NCBI GenBank assembly: GCA_964016885.1
Contig: OZ024745.1
Location: 38,440,001-38,504,000 of the forward strand
Direction of reading: 5' to 3'
Source: Eledone cirrhosa
Taxonomy: Eukaryota
DNA length: 64,000 bases
This document shows positions 16,360 to 63,039 of the stretch, in pieces; positions within the stretch are counted from its first letter, which is position 1; each line of letters starts with the position of its first letter. A program made the position numbers and the translations under genes. The notes beneath the pieces are model-generated. The model searched no databases, was not told the DNA's origin, and saw only the letters and a program-made list of their open reading frames with translations.

Positions 16360-17938
16360 GTGGTGGTGGAAGGTGCAGTACGCCACCATCACGCATACAG
16401 ACAGACAACAGGTTTACCCATGGTATCCAGCCTATCGGGCCTGCTGGCCATCACCTACATGAACCAGCTAGAATGCCGAGCCCTCAACACCTGCCATCCC
16501 CATGCCTTCTTCACCCGATATGTAGATGACATACTCATCCTCACATCATCCCGTGAGGAGGCAGATAAAATATACACAACATTCTCCAGCATGGACGCCA
16601 GTATAAAGTTCAGCATGGAACACCCCGATGACCGCGGATCCTTATCCCTACTGGACTTCCAACTCAGGGTAACAGAGGAAGGCAACATCCACACCAGCTT
16701 CTATAAAAAAGCCGCCAGCAGGGACCTGTTCGTACATTTCAGATCGGCCCTCCCACTCGGTGCCAAGTTCGGATACATAAGGAACGAACTGGCACGTATC
16801 CGGAACAAATGCACCGCCGCTAGAGACCGAGACACACACACCACACATTTCCTGGAAGTACTCAAACTGAACGGATACACGACATCCACCACAAACCGTG
16901 CCAGAAAGAACAGAGGCAACCACACCCGAGGCACTAACACTTGCTTCCTGAAGCTCCCACACTTCAGTGAAGAAACAACAACAGCCATCCGCAGAGCCAT
17001 CAGACGAGAAGGACTAGATATCCAACACACTCCACCAGAAATGACAACTGCTGCAGACTAGCCAACTGCCCCATCAACGACACAGACCTATGCCACCAGG
17101 CTTACGTCGTATACAGACTAGAGTGTGACAAATGCAACAACTTCTACGTAGGTAGCACCACCAGACCACTCCACATAAGAATACAAGAACACCTCAATAC
17201 TAACGCTTCCTCATTTAAGAAACACCTAGTTAAATGCAAAAACACCGACAAAACCATAACAGTTAGGATAGAAACTAAGGAAAGAAACCTCGGCAAGCTT
17301 AGAATTAAGGAAGCACTAATTATAGATAAAACACAACTACCTATCAATAATAGACTAGAACTCAACACCCAATTTATAACCTGATAGGGCTTCTAGCCCC
17401 ATATTTACACACCCCATACACACACACGCACGCACACACAAACACACACGCTTACACCTCCACTTATTCTCTCTCACACATACACACACAAAACCAGTTC
17501 TAACACCAGATAACACCTATCCCTCACATTTACGAATAAACTTATCATCTCACACACACACACACTCACATACTTACACCTTCATGCATTCTCCCACACA
17601 CTTAAACAGGCATGTATATAAAAAAAACGCAAAAAAACCCTAAACAAATCCCTTTTAAAGGGAGACTACTCTTTATCCACCTAATTTTAACTCTTTGACA
17701 AAGAGATAGAACAGATACTCTATACTATTTCCTGTCAGCATGGCTTGGCAAGATATTTAGAACGCTGGTTTGAGACCTTTATTTCCCTCTGAAGAAGAGA
17801 TATTATCTCGAAAATTAAGGACGTTTAAAATAAATCTAAGGTAAAAGACCAATTGTCAACAATATCTTTTGCAATTGCATTCTTTTTTCTATGTCCATAC
17901 CTGCATTGATTTGGCTTTATTATACATATCCAAACGTT
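16360..17938 (+). mobile_element. Penelope-like element, 5'-truncated (RT + GIY-YIG + 3' pLTR with HHR)
   Basis: RQTTGLPMVSSLSG and TRYVDDIL in the RT. After a frameshift: Cys-rich linker CRLANCPINDTDLC, then VVYRLECDKCNNFYVGSTT..RIQEH..EALII..NN. Ends in (TA)n. Confidence 0.92.
17784..17822 (+). ncRNA. Minimal type I hammerhead ribozyme in PLE pLTR
   Basis: tccct CTGAAGA a-gagat att atctc GAAA AT TA agga. Stem III reduced to the palindrome AATT; stem I is short. Confidence 0.7.
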
Positions 17939-17988
17939 TATATATATATATAATATATATGTGTATATATATATATATATATATTATA

Positions 17989-30008: not shown

Positions 30009-32068
30009 GATAAAATAAAATAACAGGAGGCTGGACTGGTGTAAATCCGTGAAATGTGTATTATACTATGATCATTTCAATGACCGGGTTCCATATGAAT
30101 CCGGTGATATCATCAGGTATTGGAATATAACAAAGGAATATGTAAAAAACCATGGGTCCGAAAAATCAGAGACAGAGACAAAGAGGACGACTGACCAACT
30201 AGCTGCTCTGCCAGTCGCCCTCAAAGTGGTGGCACTGAATCTACTAATGAACATCTGGTGAGGGGGCGAAGGCTTATAATGCACTACCACCTCTCCGTCA
30301 AAGAAAAAGTGGAAGAAAGAAAGTGAGAAAGAAGTCAGTGTGAGGGTCACACTACATTCATGCTAGAAAATGCCGCGAACAAATGCTACTCCAAAGAATC
30401 TATAATGGGTGTCTGTATGGTCTAATGTGTGAACCGAAGATTGGAACGTTAAACTTATGTTGCGAGTTATAGGATGAAATTAAATTAAATTAAGAATATT
30501 AAATTGCAAAATGATAAATTGAAAAATAAGTTATTAGAGAATTAGAGGTTATGATAACGAGATTTATTTATTTAATGAAGTTACGGAGAGAGTCTTATAT
30601 GAAAAAATGTATCTCGATAAGACATTAGGATGGGATATAGAGTAAAGATTTCGATTGTGATTCCCAGCCAGCTGCCCCTTTATTAATTTTTTTTATTATT
30701 TCATTAATGTATATTTTTTTTATTATTTTATTATTTTATTATATTTTTTATTATTTTATTAATGTATTTTTATCAATAGAAGGATGGGGGAAGAAGGAAA
30801 TATAGATATAAAAGATCTTACGTCTACATTTGCAAGCAGGGGTTAACCATTACAAAATCGGCAAGTGGGGTGTTATAGCCCTAGTCTACCCCCCGGGTCA
30901 TTATGGGGTTTGAGGGCGAGGTAAGTCCTACGCAATCTGTGTTTACATGCAGTTACCAGTTCATCTTTCTTGTTTAGGAGTTGGTCCGTCGAAAACAGCA
31001 TTTGTAAAGTTTCCTCCGAGCATAAATTGCACGGACGGCGTCCTCCCGTGTAAGAGTTGGCTCTGGACAGTAAGCTCCAAGTGAGATCATAGGTAATATT
31101 GTTATCCTTGAGGTGCCATATGTGGCCCGAAAGTGTAGTGGTGCCACGCCGGGCCGGGTTTCGGAAGGTATGTCTGTGTTGGTATAGCCGTGTCTTGAAA
31201 CCACATGCGGTTAATCCTATATAAGCTTTGTTGGAGGTGTCCGTCCTCACGTTGCACTGGTAGATCACATTACGATCTCTGCATCTGTTGTCGAGGGGGC
31301 AAATGGATCCATCAGGACAGTTGCACCTCCTGGTCGGCTCTCCACTGCTATTTATGTTATTTCTTCCATAGGGGTTGAGTTTTTGTTGTTAGAGGAGACG
31401 ATGTTTTGTGCAAAGTTTGGTGTGGTGCTGTAGGAGAGTTTGATGGTATTTTTGTTAATTGTGTTGTGGTAGCCGTGTTGTAGTGGGAAGTGTTTTTCAA
31501 TGAGCCTAAAGAAGATTTTCCCGATAGGAGTTGCGGGGAGGATTGAACCATGTTACATTGCGTCAGCGGCGGTGTCGCCTGCTGGTTCCGCTAATGGAAG
31601 CTGGACAGTAGGATATTTCCTCCCGGAAACCACTCCGCTTGAGGGCCTGGTTGTAATAAGGCGCATCTTCCTCGAATATCTGCTCATTAGCTGACAAACG
31701 AGATATGCGGAGGGAGATGTTTTTAACCAGGTTATTGGTGATGTTCCTAGGATGGTTTGACCGGCGGTGGATGTAGTGCAGGTTGTCGTTGGGTTTTCTG
31801 TATGGGTAGTACAGATCATTGTCGAGGTCAAGGGTAACGTCCAGGAAGTTTCTCGGGTCAGGGACGTTTGTAGGTTTATTTTAAATCCCCAGTCGCGGAA
31901 GAAGCTGATTAATTGTTTACGGACCCGATCTGTACTACTGGAGTTGTACCCTTTAAGGGTAAGGAGCCCATCATCACGGTACAATCCACCGCCGAATGCC
32001 GGAAACATATGCGTGAGTTTGGCTATTAGGAATAATCCTATAAGATCTGTGACCTCAGCCGAATCCGT
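30009..32068 (-). mobile_element. Penelope-like element, 5'-truncated, frameshifted (second PLE family)
   Basis: DSAEVTDLIG, GGLYRDDGL, PYRKPND in the RT. Linker CNC..CPL..C. GIY-YIG IYQC..AYIGLT..R..H, then CNLC.EE, LLNK. The 3' UTR ends in (TA)n at ~30008. Confidence 0.92.
30063..30120 (-). ncRNA. Type I hammerhead ribozyme in PLE 3' pLTR
   Basis: atac CTGATGA t-atcaccggattc atatg gaacccggtcat-t GAAA tgatca TA gtat. Stem III palindrome ATGATCAT. Confidence 0.87.
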
Positions 32069-32864
32069 AGCGGTGGTATCTTTGCTTTAATTTCTCGTAT
32101 ATCAGTATTTTTGTGTGTGTGTGTGGGGGGGGGGGATTCTGAATTAATTTTCCGTATCAAATTTTACATATACTCTGTACGAGCATTTATGTAGTTTGCA
32201 CTAGAATTTGTGTATCGTGGCGGCACCCTTAGAGATAGTATTAGTATTCTTTTTCGGGATTCTGAATTATTATTCCGTATTAGTTTATTTTTTTTTGCAC
32301 TGGGTGGTTGCTGGCCTTGTGCCTGGAGTAGAAACCTTTATTTCGTACTGGTCTCGGGATTCTGAATTATTATTTCGTGGTTGTTTCTTTAGTATTTTGG
32401 ACCCCACTTGTTGACCCGTCACCGTAAGATATACTCGGTTGATTAATTATACCTCTTAAAAGGGTCTCATTATAATACCGTCCCACGTAGTAAACCTTTC
32501 TTTAGTCTAGCAGTAACAGTGAGATACTTGATAGCTGTCCTTAGGTCATTGTAACCAGAAATTGTTTTTTTTTACATTTAATTGTTTTTTAAAACTCTTA
32601 GTATTTTTCTACATATTTACAACATATTGTTTTACTTATTGTTTCGAGTTCCTCCCCCTCCCTAGTATCTTCTTTGACCTCCTGCCCAGCTGTAGTTGGC
32701 ACTATCACCGCACGACTGGGTTTCCTCCACCCCTCTCCCTCTTTCTTCTACTGGCAGGTTCAGCTACCCCTTCCCTCCACAAATTACCATGATATAATTA
32801 TTATCTCTCAACAACAAACTTTTGACCAATCCTTGTGACAATCATTTTTACCATATATGGAATT

Positions 32865-33927: not shown

Positions 33928-36359
33928 CAAAGGTTCTCAATGGTGGGCATAAGCTCCCCCGGTGGGCGTTTCCGAACTCCAGGGGGCGTTTGGGAGCAAA
34001 GTCGCGTTAGGGTGGCGGTGGGGGCGTTGAATGCTCTTTATTTTGGTAAGTTTTATAAGACATATTTGTATGTCTTTGAGTCAGCCAGTGTGAATGCATT
34101 TGAATGAGCTTCCAGACAGCATAACTATAGCCTGACTACAGGCGTGTGCGGTAATTGAGACATTACCCGGTAATTGATATCCTAAAAATGGTAGAAGCCC
34201 ACAGTCAACTGGGTCAAGTACACTTTGAACGCAGCCAGTTAGAATCTTATCTTTCCTTCACCCATAACAATGTATGAAATTATTGACTCAGCCGTAACGA
34301 GATAACACTACGTAAATCTATTTTATTCCCTATTGTATAAATATTATTACAAATAAAAAAAGAAAAGAAAATCAGAAGCGGGTAGCACACATATCTAGGA
34401 CCACATACAACACATAATCAGATAATACACACATCTAGGACAACATACAACACATAAGCAGGTAATACACACATCTAGAGCCACATGCAACACTAAGGAG
34501 GTAACACACACATATAGGACCACATAAAACACACAAGCAGGTAATACATACATCTAGGACCACATACAATACATAAGCAAGTAATACAAAAATCTAAGAC
34601 CACATACAACACAATCAGGTAATACATACAGCTGGGACCACATGCAATACATAAGCAGGTAATACATACATCTAGGACTATATACAACACACAGGCAGGT
34701 AATATATACATCTAGGACCACATACAACGCACATTGTATCATGTGCTACGGACGACGCAATAGCAATGGTCGGCAAACATAAGGGTTTCGTCACTCTTCT
34801 GAAAAGAGAAAATCTATCTGTATTTGCTGTTCATTGTGTCATTCATCGACAACACTTGGCTGCGAAGAAACTCAGCAAGCCGCTGAGCAAGTAATTGCAG
34901 GTGGCCATTGATGTCATCAATATTATCAAACGGCATTCCCTGAATGAAGGAATTTTCCGGCAACTGTATCAAGATAATGACGAAGAATTCGTCAAGTTGC
35001 TCCTTCATACTGAAGTGAGGTGCCTTTCAAAGGGCAAGTAATTTACTCACTTCTTTTAACTCTTCGACTCTATCATTGAGTTTCTGCGAGGTCGCAACAC
35101 AGAACTGTACAAGAAAACCCTCGATGTGAGGCAAGATTGCGCCTACCTCACCAACATCATCGAAAGGAATCTTTGTTGACGGGAACTCTATAATGTTCCT
35201 AGTGTCGCCAATGTTCAACACATTGTAAGCGATGACCAACTCCAAATTTATACCACTCAACTCCGTGCGCTACAATACAACATGAGAGAACGTTGTGTCG
35301 ACCTTTTGCCGATCCGATGGACATCCCAATGTGGATAGCAGAACCCTTCATAGCTAACGTCGACGATTTGGACATTACATTTCAGAAAGAATTCATTGAA
35401 CTTCAAACAGATGACATGATCAAAATTAGATTTCCCAAAATAGGTGAACCTCTTTTGGGGATGCAAGATGAAATTCAGCGTTGATTTCCACACCTACATG
35501 CAGAGACTAAGATATTTGCTCTGCCTTTTCCAAGCTCATACTTAGTCGAAAGTAGGTTGGGTGCTGTTTCCAGACTGCACAGTAAGGCTCGCAACCGCTA
35601 CAATGTAATTACATGTGGAGATCTCTCGCTACTTCTTAGGAAAATTCAACCTCATGTCAAAGAGTTAGCTAGACACCATGAAGATAAAGGGTCCCATTGA
35701 AATGAATCAAAGTTAAAGTAAGTTGATTTATTCGAAGCCTTGTATATGCTATTGTTACAAAGCAAACTAACAATTTTTTTTATTTGTAGTTGCAGTCTGA
35801 CTAGACTGGAAGCCATCTACTACAATTCAATTACTCATTTGTTGTATATATTTTACCATTTATTAATAAATATACCCTCCCGCGTGGTCATTAAAACCGT
35901 CTTCCGTGGTCTCTAAGCTCAGAAAGCAGAGAGGACATCGAGTTAGATATCAACATATATTCTGTCCGTTTCATTAAAGGGAAAATTGGAAAGCTTTGAA
36001 ATGATATAATTGCCACTTTCTTCCAGATAAGAGCACTCTTTGGATAGACAGAATTGCTCTTGAATAAATGTTCAAAATAACTGGTATCGCCAGGTGGGAA
36101 TATAACAAATTCAACTGGTCCTTATTCATAAAAAGGAAAATTTATGTTCCTTTTTTTGAAATTTATATATTTCCTTTCAAGGAATGTATTTATACTCTCA
36201 GCTGCCTGCAATGGTATCTTAGGAATATTGTTAATCAATTTTTTAGTAATCTACTGATATCAAAATCAGTAGTATATTGAAAAATGGAAAAATAGGGCAA
36301 GGGCGTTTGTGATTTCGAGGGACAAATGGGTTTTGGCCTAAATGGGTTGAGAACCTGTG
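33928..36359 (+). mobile_element. hAT (Charlie/Buster-type) DNA transposon, defective
   Basis: 13-bp TIRs caaaggttctcaa / ttgagaacctgtg. 8-bp TSD gtatagaa (33920-33927, 36360-36367). Transposase remnant 34735-35700: CATDDAIAMVG, HCVIHRQHL, LPFPSSYLVES, KARNR. Confidence 0.93.
34378..34732. repeat. ~40-bp minisatellite, ~9 copies, inside the hAT
   Basis: Unit gcaggtaatacacacatctaggaccacatacaacacataa. Confidence 0.92.
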
Positions 36360-46940: not shown

Positions 46941-47265
46941 GCAAAAGTTCTATTTAAAATTGTTGGGATACAACAAGTTAATATTTTTATAATTGATATA
47001 AAGCACTCGAAAAGTTTTTGGAGTAGATATACGATATTAATAAATGAAGACTATATTTTTAAAATCATATTTATTTCATTATACATATTTCAGGGATACC
47101 ACATTAAATTATGGTATGCCAAAGAGTACGTCAAAGCTATTTGTAAAACTGTTATATATTGTATTTTGTCTGATGAAGGCATACCGTAATTTAATGTGGT
47201 ATCCCTGAAATATGTATAATGAAATAAATATGGTTTTATAAATATAGTTTCCATTTATTAATATC

Positions 47266-47271
<6 letters not shown>
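46941..47271. mobile_element. Fold-back HHR element with ~93-bp inverted arms
   Basis: 47027-47120 versus 47178-47271. In (TA)n. Confidence 0.82.
47162..47226 (+). ncRNA. Type I hammerhead ribozyme
   Basis: tattttgt CTGATGA aggcatacc..ggtatccct GAAA tatgta TA atgaaata. Confidence 0.87.
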
Positions 47272-47325
<54 letters not shown>

Positions 47326-47660
47326 CTATATCCAAAATTAAGATAAATAAAATCCAGATGACGATTTGAACTCAGTGTGTGAGCATGGATAGTTGTACAT
47401 TATTCTTCCTTGTTGACAATTCAACAATATCCACTTTCCGTGACTTACCATCTGATTAATTGGTGAAATATATTTATTTAATGGGATATATACAAGGAAG
47501 GTTAATCACACTTAAAGGTATAAATTTAATTATTACCCAAACTAGCTATGCGTGGTTACACGCTTGTAAAAATTATCTCCTGTGATTATTCATGTATGTT
47601 TATATGTTAATCAATTTCTACTTGTTATATATATGTATAAATATATATATATATATATAT

Positions 47661-49760
47661 ATACATTATGAAGAGAGAAGAAACATTTAGATATAATTAG
47701 TAATAAAATGTATCATACCTAAACTGTTCCTAAATTCCTCGACTACGTAGTTTCGTGGCATAAACAAAAACAATATATCAAAGATATAGAGTCCTTGCGA
47801 GGTCTGCCGACTTATCAAGAGGATACCTCATTTTACTAGTCTCAAGAACGCGTCTACACGACGTGAGAAAGAATCCCAAAAGGCGGAGGGGGAGACAGTC
47901 ACGCGATATAACGGTCGAGAAACAGAGCTAAGCCTCTTATAACCACGAAGAAAATACCACGGAGGCGGAGGGGGTATTCATATCGAGGCCGTAGAAGAGG
48001 TAGTGAAGAAGGCGAGAAGTATGAGTAATGGAAGCTTTCCAGTTGTCCCCACACTTCAAAGATTGCTCGACCAGAGGGAGTTATTAATATATTTAGAAAC
48101 ACACAGATACATGCGGACACACACATATATACATGAATGCATCCGCACCCAACTGTGAGTTAAGGGTGCCAACTTCACCGATGTTGCTCAATGAATGACT
48201 GGGACAGACTAATTCAGTTTGAACCAGACTGAACCAGTATCAGAGTTAAAAATACATTATGAAGAGAGAAGAAACATTTAGATATAATTAGTAATAAAAT
48301 GTATCATACCTAAACTGTTCCTAAATTCCTCGACTACGTAGTTTCGTGGCATAAACAAAAACAATATATCAAAGATATAGAGTCCTTGCGAGGTCTGCCG
48401 ACTTATCAAGAGGATACCTCATTTTACTAGTCTCAAGAACGCGTCTACACGACGTGAGAAAGAATCCCAAAAGGCGGAGGGGGAGACAGTCACGCGATAT
48501 AACGGTCGAGAAACAGAGCTAAGCCTCTTATAACCACGAAGAAAATACCACGGAGGCGGAGGGGGTATTCATATCGAGGCCGTAGAAGAGGTAGTGAAGA
48601 AGGCGAGAAGTATGAGTAATGGAAGCTTTCCAGTTGTCCCCACACTTCAAAGATTGCTCGACCAGAGGGAGTTATTAATATATTTAGAAACACACAGATA
48701 CATGCGGACACACACATATATACATGAATGCATCCGCACCCAACTGTGAGTTTTCTCGACCGTTATATCGCGTGACTGTCTCCCCCTCCGCCTTTTGGGA
48801 TTCTTTCTCACGTCGTGTAGACGCGTTCTTGAGACTAGTAAAATGAGGTATCCTCTTGATAAGTCGGCAGACCTCGCAAGGACTCTATATCTTTGATATA
48901 TTGTTTTTGTTTATGCCACGAAACTACGTAGTCGAGGAATTTAGGAACAGTTTAGGTATGATACATTTTATTACTAATTATATCTAAATGTTTCTTCTCT
49001 CTTCATAATGTATTTTTAACTCTGATACTGGTTCAGTCTGGTTCAAACTGAATTAGTCTGTCCCAGTCATTCATTGAGCAACATCGGTGAAGTTGGCACC
49101 CTTAACTCACAGTTGGGTGCGGATGCATTCATGTATATATGTGTGTGTCCGCATGTATCTGTGTGTTTCTAAATATATTAATAACTCCCTCTGGTCGAGC
49201 AATCTTTGAAGTGTGGGGACAACTGGAAAGCTTCCATTACTCATACTTCTCGCCTTCTTCACTACCTCTTCTACGGCCTCGATATGAATACCCCCTCCGC
49301 CTCCGTGGTATTTTCTTCGTGGTTATAAGAGGCTTAGCTCTGTTTCTCGACCGTTATATCGCGTGACTGTCTCCCCCTCCGCCTTTTGGGATTCTTTCTC
49401 ACGTCGTGTAGACGCGTTCTTGAGACTAGTAAAATGAGGTATCCTCTTGATAAGTCGGCAGACCTCGCAAGGACTCTATATCTTTGATATATTGTTTTTG
49501 TTTATGCCACGAAACTACGTAGTCGAGGAATTTAGGAACAGTTTAGGTATGATACATTTTATTACTAATTATATCTAAATGTTTCTTCTCTCTTCATAAT
49601 GTATTTTTAACTCTGATACTGGTTCAGTCTGGTTCAAACTGAATTAGTCTGTCCCAGTCATTCATTGAGCAACATCGGTGAAGTTGGCACCCTTAACTCA
49701 CAGTTGGGTGCGGATGCATTCATGTATATATGTGTGTGTCCGCATGTATCTGTGTGTTTC

Positions 49761-49765
<5 letters not shown>
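47661..49765. mobile_element. Retrozyme-like array: 591-nt monomer, ~1.85 copies (-) joined to ~1.7 copies (+)
   Basis: Period 591 (identical ORFs at 47899/48490 and starts at 49139/49730). Inversion point at ~48751. (TA)n at both ends. Four HHR motifs. Confidence 0.9.
48851..48938 (+). ncRNA. Type I hammerhead, U3:A8 core variant (also 49442-49529 +, 47736-47823 -, 48327-48414 -)
   Basis: tcctc TTGATAA gtcggca...tgccac GAAA ctacgtag TC gagga. Confidence 0.85.
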
Positions 49766-49811
<46 letters not shown>

Positions 49812-49813
49812 GT

Positions 49814-49860
<47 letters not shown>

Positions 49861-50259
49861 AACAAAATGTCCTACGCCATCTTGTTTGTGCGTGTGTTGT
49901 GTGCTTATTTTGCACATGTGTTACATCCGGGTGTCTGCGTGTGTGTTTATTTGTTTATTTATTTGTTTATTTACATGTTACTAGTTGGGTGTTTGTTCTA
50001 TGTGTGTGTGTGTTTTCATTTTGTCCTTAATTGTAAGTTGTGATGTTGCTATTCCATTCATGTTTTCTATTTAATTTTGGTAGTTCATTTATGTTTATTA
50101 CCTCTGTGATTTGTCTAAACATTGCGTCTTTTCTGTGTGTAGATTTTATTTTAATTTCTATGTTCTCTAATTTGCCCTTGTGTTCTATTTAGCATGTTGG
50201 TGGAGTACTGATGAGTCTTTTCTATCTTGAAGGTGTCGTCAGTGTTCATTTAATCCCCG

Positions 50260-50302
50260 GTCACTGATGAGGTGACAGAATGTGCGACGAAAGAACTTTG
50301 AC
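50260..50302 (+). ncRNA. Degenerate type I hammerhead (related copy ~50651-50698 -)
   Basis: gtca CTGATGA ggtgacagaatgtgcgac GAAA gaac TT tgac. The opposite copy has the perfect stem gtcaca/tgtgac but core GTGAAGA. Confidence 0.6.
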
Positions 50303-50514
50303 AATATATGAACAACCATCCGGTTGTGGAACCAACCAACCAACCGGAAATTTATACTTTTTTTAAAATGTATAACTTAATTTATAATAAATTGGACTGA
50401 AAGCGGATGGTGCGTGTGTTTCTTATTAGCAACATGACCCTCCAAAGTATAACAATATAGGCTTCAATACGCGTTTTCAGATAAAGTATCTTGCTAAAGA
50501 AATTCAGAAACGAA

Positions 50515-50545
<31 letters not shown>

Positions 50546-53500
50546 TACAATAGAAGCGACATGCTGCCAATAAAAACGCGCGCAAACCTGTTGGATTTCA
50601 CTTCAATATTTTAGTATAGGTTCCCATTCGGTTGGTTGTTTAGTTATTGATTGTCATCAAATTTCTTTCGTCACACATTCTGTGACGTCTTCACTGACTA
50701 CTATTGTTCCTTTTTTTATGTCTCCTCTGTGTAGTCGTATACACGATTCCACGCTAAATGTATTGATGTTTTCATGAATATTCACCTCATCGCATGCATT
50801 TTATCTAAAAACCAGTGATTCGTTGATCCACACAATATATTGTGGTTGTTGACATTGCAAATAGATACTATATAATCCCCAAGGAGCTTGAAAAAGAACA
50901 ATCGGTAAAGAAAGTGTGAGAGTAAAGGAAATTGAGAAAGTGTGAGTCTGAGTGTGTGAGTGAGAAAGGGATAGAGATGGGGCGGTTATAAATAAAGTCA
51001 AAATGGCAGAGTTAGAAATATCTATATTTTATTATTTCTATAAATGCATGTGCCCACATTATCTCAAACATATTTCGTTGTGTATAATAAACGTTTTCTT
51101 TTTCCATTTAACGAAACCAGTAACCGACTATGTTTATTGAGTTGTAGACATACATTGAAATTGAAACTCACTTTCCATTTTCACCCCGTATGTAATAAAT
51201 GATTGATAGTGTGGTCCCAAGTACATTCCATATAATATAACACAGTTCTGTTGGCATCATAAAATATCACATTTGGTATCTTATATCATCCTTTACATAT
51301 AACCCTACGTGCATACATATATCCGTATATTACATACGCTTATATTTTGAAGTAATGGTACACCTAATCTAAATGCTCACGAATCGACGACATACGATAT
51401 CGCCCCTATGACACCGAATGTTGAAAGCCCACCGAGATGTTAAATAAAGGATGGTCAATCGTATAACTAAAGATGAACAAACTTTCCTGGGGGGAAACTA
51501 TACACATCGAGTATACTTGACCATTTCTATAAATGAGAAATAATCTTTAATATTTTTGTAGTTTAGTGAACGTGTAATGAAAAATTACAGTCACGGTTTA
51601 CTTAAATAATTATTTTCACATTTTACACAAGGCCAACAATCTGGAAAAAAGAGGAAAGTCGACGAAAGGCACGCCAGTGCGTTACTGATATTTTATTTTA
51701 TGGAGCACATAACGATGTAAGACAAGGCTAAGATTGGTGACATTTGAACTCAGAACTCACAAGACATTTTGTTTGACGCAATAACAATTCTGTCTTCTAA
51801 TCCCCCAAAGGCTTACTGAAATGTTAGAATATGTTAATATATGTATGCAATTATAGTGTAAGAAGAAGCAGTCGCAAACAACGTGAGCCTAATGAGGTAT
51901 TTATTTATGTAACGTTGCACAAGGGAAACGTAAAATTTCTGATGTCAGGTGGACAGATAGAACAGACGGTAATATGAATATATGGAGATTATTCCAATGT
52001 ATGCTAACATAGAACAAACCAACACGATGACACATGTTGTTGTCATTCTTTCACGGCGTATGCTAGTCCTACAGCACTGTGAATAACTAGCAAACAGTCG
52101 GAAGGAAGAGAATGTGAGTATATGAAGAGTAATTTTTCATGAGGAATTACTAGATTTGAAAACGAAAATCAGTGTTGAAAGTAAATGAGTTTGATACTTT
52201 TCTTCACACATGATTCTTGACTTGGCAGACGTACAAGCTGGTCTTTCTGATCTCACTGAGAGCTGCACAAAACCTGGTAACCAACCCCCACAACGTAAAG
52301 CAAATTACCTATCATCGATGTGATAGATATTTCAATAATCTATGGAAACAGTCTATCATTGGTTCTGTATATTTTATGATAAAGACACTGCCATTTATTT
52401 GTTAAATGTTCACTAGTTATGGATTAAGGTATGTGTCACTAACAGCCATTAATATATTCCCTAATTAATTTATGCCAATGGAAGGATCTATTCTTTCTGA
52501 TATATCTTAGTAAACTTATTTTCAACTGATGGTATTTGTAAAATAATGTTCATATTTAATAGCTCTATATATAACCCTAATTTCCAAAGGTTTGAATCAG
52601 TGATCAATGTGTCTGGGTTATAAAATCCATGGGCACAACATTTCTCTCAATAAATCAATAAATCATTGTATATAAATAATATGAATTCAGACGTTAATCA
52701 AAATATCAGTGTAGATTGTATTAAACAGCATAAGCATCCGTCCCAATATGTTCAAATGTTACAATATTTATTTCTGTAAACTGTAAAATCTGAATACAAT
52801 GATATAAATAAGAAATAATTGTCATGGCAAATATTACAGTACCAAAATTCTAAACATTATGGCATCTGAAAGAAAGTCCTACCGTTTTGTATGAAGTAAA
52901 CAAGTCTAATATTTTTCTTCGAATTAAGGGAGAAACGCCATGTAGTATTTTAGGAAATAGCTGGCCAACAGTTATGAATGACGTGTTTAAAATGTTTCAT
53001 CGCGAATATATATTGCTTTTGTAACATGGTTATAACATTTATTTTATTATACAGCATCGTTGGTTACTTGGATTCTGCAACAAAGGATTCCTATAAAGCG
53101 AGGAAATCCTGGCATCCTTAAGAGACCAGAACCACTTGATTCGAATATTCAACATCTTATTATTGATCAATGAAGATTTGTATAACACTTGAAAGAATCT
53201 ACATTTGATTCTATAGGAACATACACTATGATTGCATATATTCGTACACGTACAAATACGCACACGCAGCTCAACCATGCACAGTATTCTAAGAGAATTT
53301 GATTATTTACAAACGGGTGCAACCGCCTTGATTCAAATAAGAAAGCCATGTCAAGTTCGTAGCGAAGTCGGTTATCTGTTTTATTAAGGATTTCAATGCA
53401 TAGTTAAATTGTAAGAGCGTGTTTTCATATACATGTGTATGCATATGCGTGCGGGTGTGATATATATATATATATATTATTGTATGTATGTTCTTCTGGT

Positions 53501-61828: not shown

Positions 61829-61833
61829 CATAT

Positions 61834-62980
61834 CAATATATATATGGATGTATATATAATGTATTTTGCAATACACTTTATGCTTAATTAAAAGCATTTT
61901 CTCACTACTCTAAAACCATAGCATACGGTCTTCAAAATGCTTTTAATTAAGCATAAAGTGTATTGCAAAATACATTATATATACATCCATATATATATTG
62001 CTATTTCAGAGCTCCAATTCTAATTTTTAATTTCTGCCTGACCAACAACCCCTCTGTATAACCAGTTCCTGATTATTTACTAGAATTCTACAAGAATATA
62101 ACATCAGTGATCTCGGTAGACAGGAGGGAGTAGTTAACCTTGATAAGCATCAATAAATGCGAAACAAGGCCTTGTCGGCTTATCTCCCCTGTTTGCTGAG
62201 ATTAAAGAAAGTGGATTTGACACTACTCTAAAACAATAGCATACGGTCTTCAAAATGCTTTTAATTAGGCATAAAGTGTATTGCAAAATACATTATATAT
62301 ACATCCATATATATATATTGCTATTTCAGAGCTCCAATTCTAATTTGTAATTTCTGCCTGACCAACAACCGCTCTGTATAATCAGTTCCCGATTATTTAC
62401 TAGAATTCTATAAGAATATAACATCACCGATCTCGGTAGACAGGATGGAGTAGTTAGCCTTGATAAGCATCAATAAATGCGAAACAAGGCGGTGTCGGCT
62501 TATCTCCCCTGTTTGCTGAGATTAAAGTAAGTGAATTGGTCACTACTCTAAAACAATAGCATACGGTCTTCAAAATGCTTTTAATTAAGCATAAAGTGTA
62601 TTGCAAAATACATTGTATATACATCCATATATATATTGCTATTTCAGAGCTCCAATTCTAATTTTTAATTTCTGCCTGACCAACAACCGCTCTGTATAAC
62701 CAGTTCCTGATTATTTACTAGAATTCTATAAGAATATAACATCAGTGATCTCGGTAGACAGGAGGGAGTAGTTAGCCTTGATAAGCATCAATAGATGCGA
62801 AACAAGGCCGTGTCGGCTTATCTCCCCTGTTTGCTGAGATTAAAGTAAGTGAATTCGTCACTACTCTAAAACAATAGCATACGGTCTTCAAAATGCTTTT
62901 AATTAAGCATAAAGTGTATTGCAAAATACATTATATATACATCCATATATATATTGCTATTTCAGAGCTCCAATTCCCAA

Positions 62981-62986
<6 letters not shown>
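61834..62986 (+). mobile_element. Retrozyme-like tandem array: ~318-nt monomer x ~3.4 with inverted 5' piece
   Basis: Units start at 61903, 62221, 62541 and 62859. 61834-61900 is an inverted fragment. (TA)n on both sides. One HHR per unit. Confidence 0.92.
62774..62818 (+). ncRNA. Type I hammerhead, U3:A8 core variant (also 62136-62180 and 62456-62500)
   Basis: agcc TTGATAA gcatc aata gatgc GAAA caaggcc(t/g)tg TC ggct. Long extended stem I: tctcggtagacagg..ggag / ctcc.cctgtttgctgaga. Confidence 0.88.

Positions 62987-63039
<53 letters not shown>

Follow-up and report, generated by a model that had tools for sequence, protein, structure and literature searches.

A young hammerhead retrozyme of Eledone cirrhosa with two fixed, paired insertion ends points to mobilisation by PLE machinery

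We report a very young retrozyme-type insertion in a 64,000-nt stretch of Eledone cirrhosa DNA (the window). It consists of 591-nt monomers in two tandem arms joined head-to-head within a (TA)n target, and it is almost certainly a real mobile element. In this family the outer ends of insertions are fixed at two sites 165 nt apart and are strictly paired, one of each, an anatomy for which we found no precedent among retrozyme tandems. Outer ends fixed and paired in this way point to the machinery of Penelope-like elements (PLEs), which very probably mobilises the element. Our overall reading is that it is a non-LTR retrozyme, probably copied from a predicted RNA circle by a PLE reverse transcriptase-endonuclease.

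Results

The minus arm (47661-48752; 1,092 nt, 1.85 units) and the plus arm (48752-49769; 1,018 nt, 1.72 units) match the 591-nt monomer without a single mismatch or gap and overlap by 1 nt at 48752, head-to-head (5'-5'). The earlier note had described about 1.85 minus and about 1.7 plus identical units fused together with (TA)n at both ends, which measurement confirmed; its junction (about 48751) and right end (49765) are corrected to 48752 and 49769. Phases of the monomer are numbered from 48752 on the plus strand (phase 1). On this scale the minus arm runs from phase 353 to 262 and the plus arm from phase 1 to 427. The arms share perfect inverted repeats of 858 and 671 nt, and the outer flanks of the insertion show no mirror symmetry. 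A target-site duplication is unreadable within (TA)n. The features are as follows.

47626-47663: left (TA)n target run
47661-48752, minus strand: left arm, 1.85 monomers, with its 5' phase 353 at the junction and its 3' end at site A (phase 262)
47661-47666, minus strand: site A, a TA-like hexamer (phases 257-262) that blends into the TA run
47736-47823, minus strand: type I hammerhead motif, copy 1; U3:A8 core at 47818-47812, predicted cut at 47741/47740
48327-48414, minus strand: type I hammerhead motif, copy 2
48752: inversion junction, head-to-head, phases 353/1, 1-nt overlap
48752-49769, plus strand: right arm, 1.72 monomers, with its 5' phase 1 and its 3' end at site B (phase 427)
48752-49342, plus strand: reference 591-nt monomer, non-coding and structured
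48851-48938, plus strand: type I hammerhead motif, copy 3; predicted cut after phase 182 (48933)
49442-49529, plus strand: type I hammerhead motif, copy 4
49605-49769, plus strand: 165-nt A-to-B stretch, present at one outer end only, the equivalent of the PLE 'tail'
49764-49769, plus strand: site B, a TA-like hexamer (phases 422-427)
49764-49858: right (TA)n target run

Site A would be a start of reverse transcription and site B a second one. Immediately to the left of the element, between TA runs, the window also holds an inverted repeat of 97 nt with 94% complementarity (47024-47274).

A U3:A8 core had been claimed for every unit. Four TTGATAA cores were placed in the element, at 47812-47818 and 48403-48409 (minus) and at 48856-48862 and 49447-49453 (plus), and stems I-III, GAAA and UC are present around them. 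The tandem unit thus carries one type I hammerhead motif, as retrozymes do. Three further TTGATAA cores lie within the 318-nt array described below. The heptamer alone is not enriched (17 observed against 26 expected), so the hammerhead call rests on stems I-III together with GAAA and UC. In monomer phases, stem I is formed by 100-104/183-187, the core UUGAUAA occupies 105-111, stem II is closed by 112-118/163-168, GAAA lies at 169-172, stem III is palindromic and the cut is predicted after 182. A scan of the window against Rfam at gathering thresholds gave no match. Two hairpins had been proposed inside stem II: tatatc/gatata is supported, and cct-cgca-agg is not favoured, since 125-132 is predicted to pair with 152-159 instead (p=0.99). 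In an alignment of 34 rows, G>A changes at 129 (2 rows) and 130 (1 row) would disrupt the cct-cgca-agg hairpin but leave the long stem intact. Each core position is variable in at most one of 228-250 units. Variants occupy 3 of 1,340 core cells against 1,173 of 60,212 cells elsewhere, a contrast inflated by related copies; with rare variants only, the comparison is 3/1,340 against 308/60,212 (p=0.17, not significant). Selection on the core is suggested, not established. No covariation beyond that of shuffles was found in the 591-nt unit.

The circular minimum free energy (MFE) of the monomer is -174.3, against -133.9 for shuffles (sd 5.5, n=40), with 63% of bases paired. A highly self-paired circle is therefore predicted, as for other retrozymes. 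The antisense fold (-131.7) is similar to the shuffles. In the predicted circle the partner of site A is the stem III region of the hammerhead (p>0.9); site B is unpaired. This pairing with site A would keep the hammerhead inactive, as one would expect of a circle that is stable. Relative to the circle MFE, the active hammerhead fold costs 8 kcal/mol, and its predicted probability is close to zero in linear precursors as well; cleavage may therefore depend on dimers or protein. Such a need has been reported for PLE hammerheads (PMC11167929, PMC4209133; here and below, literature statements refer to the available parts of the cited papers). The idea that sites A and B form one shared helix was rejected because A pairs with the stem III region and B is unpaired. 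Hairpins that shorten the 165 nt to a path of about 40 nt did not discriminate either (graph distance 46, background median 48).

The longest stop-free stretch in the monomer is 86 codons, and stops occur in all six frames. As in non-LTR retrozymes, LTR/PBS/PPT architecture is absent from the unit (PBS and PPT judged by eye). An ORF with reverse transcriptase (RT) and GIY-YIG is also absent from it, which sets it apart from an autonomous PLE. An endless ORF on a circle of 3n length is ruled out by the stops in every frame. Viroid-like ambisense or coding circles, such as zetaviruses and obelisks, have ribozymes on both strands and a rod fold or an endless ORF. This class was rejected for the 591-nt unit, given the branched fold, the stops in six frames and the lack of an antisense TTGATAA core.

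The assembly measures 3.0 Gb and holds 6,161 exact matches to an 18-mer of the hammerhead core. The 591-nt family is a dispersed, mobile family with thousands of copies, as expected of a retrozyme. At least 16 full monomers at 9 loci are identical to that of the window (40 of 434 candidates scored). Together with the absence of mismatches over the 2.1 kb of the window insertion, these identical monomers uphold the earlier suggestion of a very recent insertion. Identity of other copies falls as low as 88%, which indicates activity that has lasted a while and that continues or ceased only recently. In all, 97 loci were mapped. Their arms reach 5.15 units, and the inverted form is the usual one (22 of 31 loci picked by an A end). 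No arm runs into a PLE ORF, so the unit is more than just the end of a PLE. At two loci (L047, L058) retrozyme copies sit inside the TA run at the 3' end of separate PLE copies, a case of shared targets and pile-up. At another (L077, G000:C1:19617000-19624200) an inverted insertion occurs twice, 2,554 bp apart and with the same junction, which is a local tandem duplication after insertion.

Part of the monomer is also present in twenty sequencing runs (X1-X20) from 16 studies with 17 organism codes; none of the runs listed is on record as RNA. Five of the 24 runs listed were examined. One circular contig each in X1 (621 nt) and X5 (620 nt), at a depth of about 8, is not taken as evidence of RNA, since both could be trace genomic DNA. 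Run X1 also has pieces of PLE ORF at a depth of about 3; no such pieces occur in X5, although at this depth their absence proves nothing. Both low-depth runs look like trace carry-over, and the remaining organism codes are not regarded as hosts. In contigs of run X2, which may be the assembled sample or a relative, loose ends enter TA precisely at 262 and 427. The lack of variant 304A in X2 contigs was discarded as a presence/absence test between individuals because 304A occurs in only 2 of 90 units (C1 sample) and contigs drop rare variants.

At the window and the 36 best-hit loci, 3' ends fall at about 262 (A) or at 427-429 (B) and run straight into TA; 5' ends vary. The expectation that the arms would start and stop at phases permuted as on a circular template therefore holds for the inner 5' ends and fails for the outer 3' ends, which are fixed and paired A/B. 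Genome-wide there are at least 2,581 exact A-to-TA junctions and, in two registers, at least 1,055 + 668 (1,723) exact B-to-TA junctions, both lower bounds because only exact matches were counted. Reversed controls gave 0-1. The spacing of the two sites is 165 nt (427 minus 262), and the ends lie 80 and 245 nt beyond the predicted cut. The hammerhead cut site coincides with neither outer end; copying therefore begins within the unit.

For an unbiased test of pairing, all ends on C1:1-103.9 Mb (100 A, 66 B) were listed and tail-out pairs within 6 kb were taken. Every one of the 35 pairs was A+B, with no AA and no BB (p=3e-11 against an expectation of 0.5). Another 12 inversions, each detected through a single end, proved to be A+B as well; one more has a non-standard second end. 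Among the 37 loci formed by the window and its best full-length matches, 16 of 18 inversions are A+B. A tally of 63 inversions, which overlaps the C1 test, includes 20 loci chosen as AB and counts one duplicated locus twice, gave 58 AB, 1 BB and 4 others. Exceptions include B+B at L042, an end at phase 93 at L063, and arms that differ at a subfamily site (304) at L062. A (TA)n target reads alike on either strand and cannot impose the one-of-each rule, whose source must then be the RNA-protein complex; strict pairing on a strand-symmetric target also means that the two starts are coupled within one event. The 591-nt element shares with PLEs a partial tandem with an inverted 5'-truncated copy and an extension at one end only. 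It differs in the length of that tail, 165 nt and not 30-40 bp.

The arms overlap by at least 2 nt in 18 of the 33 junctions that have no inserted bases, against 15.6% expected; the other 30 of 63 were left out because inserted bases or subfamily differences make the overlap negative. Both arms exceed one unit in 12 of 63 inversions. The 24-mer at the window junction (353/1) was found once more, in an unrelated copy at G000:C17:7305973 (L197), which is older (97%) and has the same 353/1 junction with unrelated flanks and other arm lengths and ends. At L092, L094 and L177 both arms are joined at the same phase. Junctions of inversions may have preferred sites. An analysis of hotspots of 5' stops (p=0.01) was set aside because it is confounded by subfamily variants that stop exact extension.

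PLEs and a second small family occur in the same window.

16383-17942, plus strand: 5'-truncated PLE with RT, C-terminal GIY-YIG and a C3:G8 hammerhead-like motif, ending in a TA run
61830-62987: copy of the 318-nt family, head-to-head, U3:A8 core (61830-61900 minus strand, 61902-62987 plus strand)

Through the PLE remnant, a member of a candidate helper family, we reached a young PLE family whose unit measures 3,127 bp and whose 860-aa ORF (RVT_1 + GIY-YIG) is intact; 113 homologues of its protein were found, none of them carrying a clade name. This family inserts in TA runs, forms tandems and inversions, and ends at 532 or 572; end 572 has no TA likeness. In our tally, 17 of 18 inverted copies with both ends at 532/572 have one of each. 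The tail measures 40 nt in two intact PLE families and appears to be about 40 nt in a third. The 591-nt unit shows no similarity to these three young PLE families beyond low-complexity stretches, and a 165-nt tail occurs in none of them. PLE candidates scored were 150 of 14,663 and 150 of 17,627. A second RT-like remnant (31556-32086), which we take to be Naiad-like by its motifs, has no Pfam match and only degraded relatives among the 150 candidates scored.

The autonomous PLE (L157-L176) forms arrays of more than three 3,127-bp units with about 100% identity (L158-L159). Recent copies carry the hammerhead core CCGAAGA, and the window remnant CTGAAGA. Two further young PLE families (L228-L241), with frames of 887 and 881 aa and about 55% identical to the first, have a hammerhead-like motif with an apparently non-standard core. 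At 50220-50780 the window contains two PLE-type end pieces that face the TA run 50515-50541 and carry minimal C3:G8 hammerhead motifs at 50259 (plus) and about 50700 (minus, by eye). A 40-nt tandem repeat of about 9 copies lies at 34376-34728.

The 318-nt family ends near 97 and 123-130, which gives a tail of about 26-33 nt. Its 28 distinct loci include 21 inversions; 17 of these have both ends at the sites, and 16 of the 17 have one of each in our tally. As the earlier note had it, the two families are dissimilar outside the core (no BLAST similarity at E<=1), and UUGAUAA occurs in both, with cores in the 591-nt and 318-nt arrays. A third small family with a U3:A8-type minimal hammerhead (L084, L123, L049, L052, L056, L240) forms short palindromic insertions in TA runs, and its outer ends apparently differ by about 65 nt (by eye).

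We examined 54 young loci for the nature of the template. Eleven sample-private variants are fixed in all units of a locus, 3 of the 11 across both arms, and 59 private variants are confined to some units, as expected of later mutations. The distance between the arms of a locus is below the between-locus median in 40 of 45 loci. Shared variants within a locus fit one monomer template per event, and hence a circle; they could alternatively come from one homogeneous donor locus or from conversion between arms. The earlier proposal of a circular template agrees with arrays of up to 5.15 units, the circle itself being predicted. A circular RNA is the probable template of the 591-nt arrays, and whether both arms were copied from a single RNA molecule is an evenly balanced question.

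Possible, though less likely than not, is the use of one RNA molecule for each arm, with an asymmetric protein dimer assigning A and B to its separate subunits. Independent RNAs would account for arm lengths that are uncorrelated (rho -0.15, n=43), for the fact that neither arm stops at the start site of the other, and for L062, whose arms differ at site 304. The rare variants common to both arms of a locus are at odds with separate RNAs. Two equivalent RNAs would also pose no obvious bar to AA pairs, although A ends are commoner.

The same PLE machinery with two starts might have used a linear template instead, either uncut multimers or jumps between cut monomers; we consider this unlikely. 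Unprocessed RNA was the dominant substrate of an anole PLE in vitro, and ribozyme mutants were still inserted (PMC11167929). The 591-nt hammerhead is not predicted to fold readily, and young donors of 4-5 identical units exist, so that homogeneous arrays do not need a circle. Internal starts with 5' truncation would only shorten a linear copy, however, and arrays of 5 units would then need a regenerating step. Arrays also seldom combine subfamily alleles: none of the 54 young loci segregates at site 27, and 2 segregate at site 304, one of them at a misaligned junction. Animal retrozymes in vivo are, moreover, mostly circular (PMC7229834).

Twin priming is a known behaviour of L1. A LINE-type RT that primes in this manner wherever the RNA resembles (TA)n, with the fixed ends as the best microhomologies, is an improbable source of the insertions. 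The TA-like hexamers at both A and B, the short overlaps at junctions and the other retrotransposon ORF remnants in the window (identified by eye) would suit such an enzyme. Yet the equally TA-like sites at 145-150, 380-391 and 402-407 are almost never outer ends. If the enzyme chose freely between A and B, AA pairs should be frequent, and none was seen among 35; the start of the second arm also fails to coincide with the stop of the first. The same rule holds for the coding PLE, one of whose ends lacks TA likeness.

Alternatively, the inversion could have been created by fold-back during assembly or library preparation, or by snap-back copying of the first cDNA. This notion draws on the perfect inverted repeats of 858 and 671 nt and on the lack of a junction-spanning read, the one raw-read run examined (X22) having no reads on the element at all. 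It has a negligible chance of being right: the flanks are not mirrored, dozens of loci that differ in junction and age show the inverted form, and both versions are excluded by arms that have no sequence in common (3 of 63 inversions) or that each have phases the other lacks (10 of 63).

Discussion

We propose the following route for the PLE-mediated copying of the 591-nt retrozyme. Tandem copies would be transcribed, cut after phase 182 and ligated to a circle. By analogy with PLE biochemistry, a PLE protein, probably a dimer, would bind the RNA and cut both strands of (TA)n. At the two ends observed, 165 nt apart, site A would be primed by one DNA end and site B by the other, presumably with the PLE enzyme. 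Reverse transcription would then run for a variable distance, often over more than one unit as the products indicate. The two same-sense cDNAs may anneal by the few bases seen as overlaps, and fill-in would give the head-to-head form; a single arm kept would leave a plain tandem that ends at A or B. The full scheme, with one PLE dimer on one retrozyme circle, two starts 165 nt apart and two rolling-circle cDNAs stitched head-to-head, is offered tentatively, with slightly less than even confidence.

Several of these steps have precedents. For a PLE RT, two internal start sites define the tail, both target strands are cut and extended, and a dimer is predicted (PMC11167929). Other findings on that enzyme count against the scheme: in vitro its start sites did not differ between strands, initiation took place without homology to the target, and cleavage by the hammerhead was dispensable (PMC11167929). 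Sites A and B, in contrast to these homology-free starts (PMC11167929), are both TA-like. Circles have been proposed as templates for copies of more than one unit (PMC4209133).

Retrozymes, U3:A8 cores and inverted PLE copies with a tail are already published. PLEs have been proposed as the retrozyme mobiliser (Cervera and de la Pena 2020, PMC7229834; Li et al. 2026, bioRxiv 10.64898/2026.07.22.740005), and the enzyme that moves animal retrozymes has so far been argued from co-occurrence and pLTR homology. The 591-nt element resembles metazoan non-LTR retrozymes in being a non-coding, AT-rich tandem with one type I hammerhead per unit and a short palindromic helix III, dispersed in many copies and co-occurring with PLEs. 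Unlike the known ones, its unit has a U3:A8 core with a 44-nt stem II extension, and its insertions are mostly head-to-head with two fixed, paired ends. The monomer had been called long for an animal retrozyme: 591 nt does exceed the invertebrate circles of about 170-400 nt (PMC7229834), but it lies within the range of 51-972 bp given in bioRxiv 10.64898/2026.07.22.740005. Homology to pLTRs is reported for 24 of 57 Xenopus families (bioRxiv 10.64898/2026.07.22.740005), whereas none was found for the 591-nt unit in comparison with three PLE families. In the available text, the term 'inverted' is absent from PMC7229834; in bioRxiv 10.64898/2026.07.22.740005 it occurs in the reference list only and 'tail' is absent. 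Our search, largely outside subscription literature and supplements, turned up no description of inverted retrozyme tandems with two paired ends.

PLE insertions typically have an inverted truncated copy and a 30-40 bp tail at one end (Arkhipova 2013, PMC3846280; Craig 2021, PMC8557442). With endonuclease-positive PLEs (PMC3846280, PMC8557442; Frangieh 2024, PMC11167929) the 591-nt element has in common partial tandems, inverted 5'-truncated copies, an extension at one end, (TA)n targets, a hammerhead upstream of the ends and two internal RT starts. It departs from PLEs in lacking an ORF, in being repeated as an entire unit, in having an extension of 165 nt and in the TA likeness of both ends. 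In the available PLE texts (PMC3846280, PMC8557442, PMC11167929) the tail is optional or at one end and the one-of-each rule is unquantified.

Minimal hammerheads with U3-A8 are described in Cercyon-related PLEs of Schistosoma mansoni (Cervera and de la Pena 2014, PMC4209133). They show the same core covariation and palindromic helix III as the 591-nt unit (PMC4209133). The Schistosoma motifs are mostly single, heterogeneous and minimal, whereas the 591-nt unit has a full stem I, a long stem II and a young non-coding tandem. Non-autonomous Chlamys elements, MRC1 among them (PMC8557442), are likewise non-coding PLE dependants with multicopy head-to-tail insertions. By contrast, they generally have 3' sequence in common with autonomous families and occur in green algae with other targets, and hammerheads are absent from most Chlamys elements.

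In this genome two unrelated retrozyme families, beside intact PLEs, bear the PLE signature in the very structure of their insertions, and the strict one-of-each pairing constrains the unexplained PLE tail and inversion. If the proposed scheme is true, the PLE tail and the inverted copy would together be a single, unavoidable result of a double-strand mechanism with two starts, and a retrozyme without helper homology could set a spacing far from 40 nt by RNA shape alone. The paired-end anatomy at 165 nt ties the retrozyme to PLE enzymology, and the coupling of the two PLE starts becomes testable: to the existing in vitro assay the 591-nt element offers a substrate, two predicted starts, a target and candidate intact proteins.
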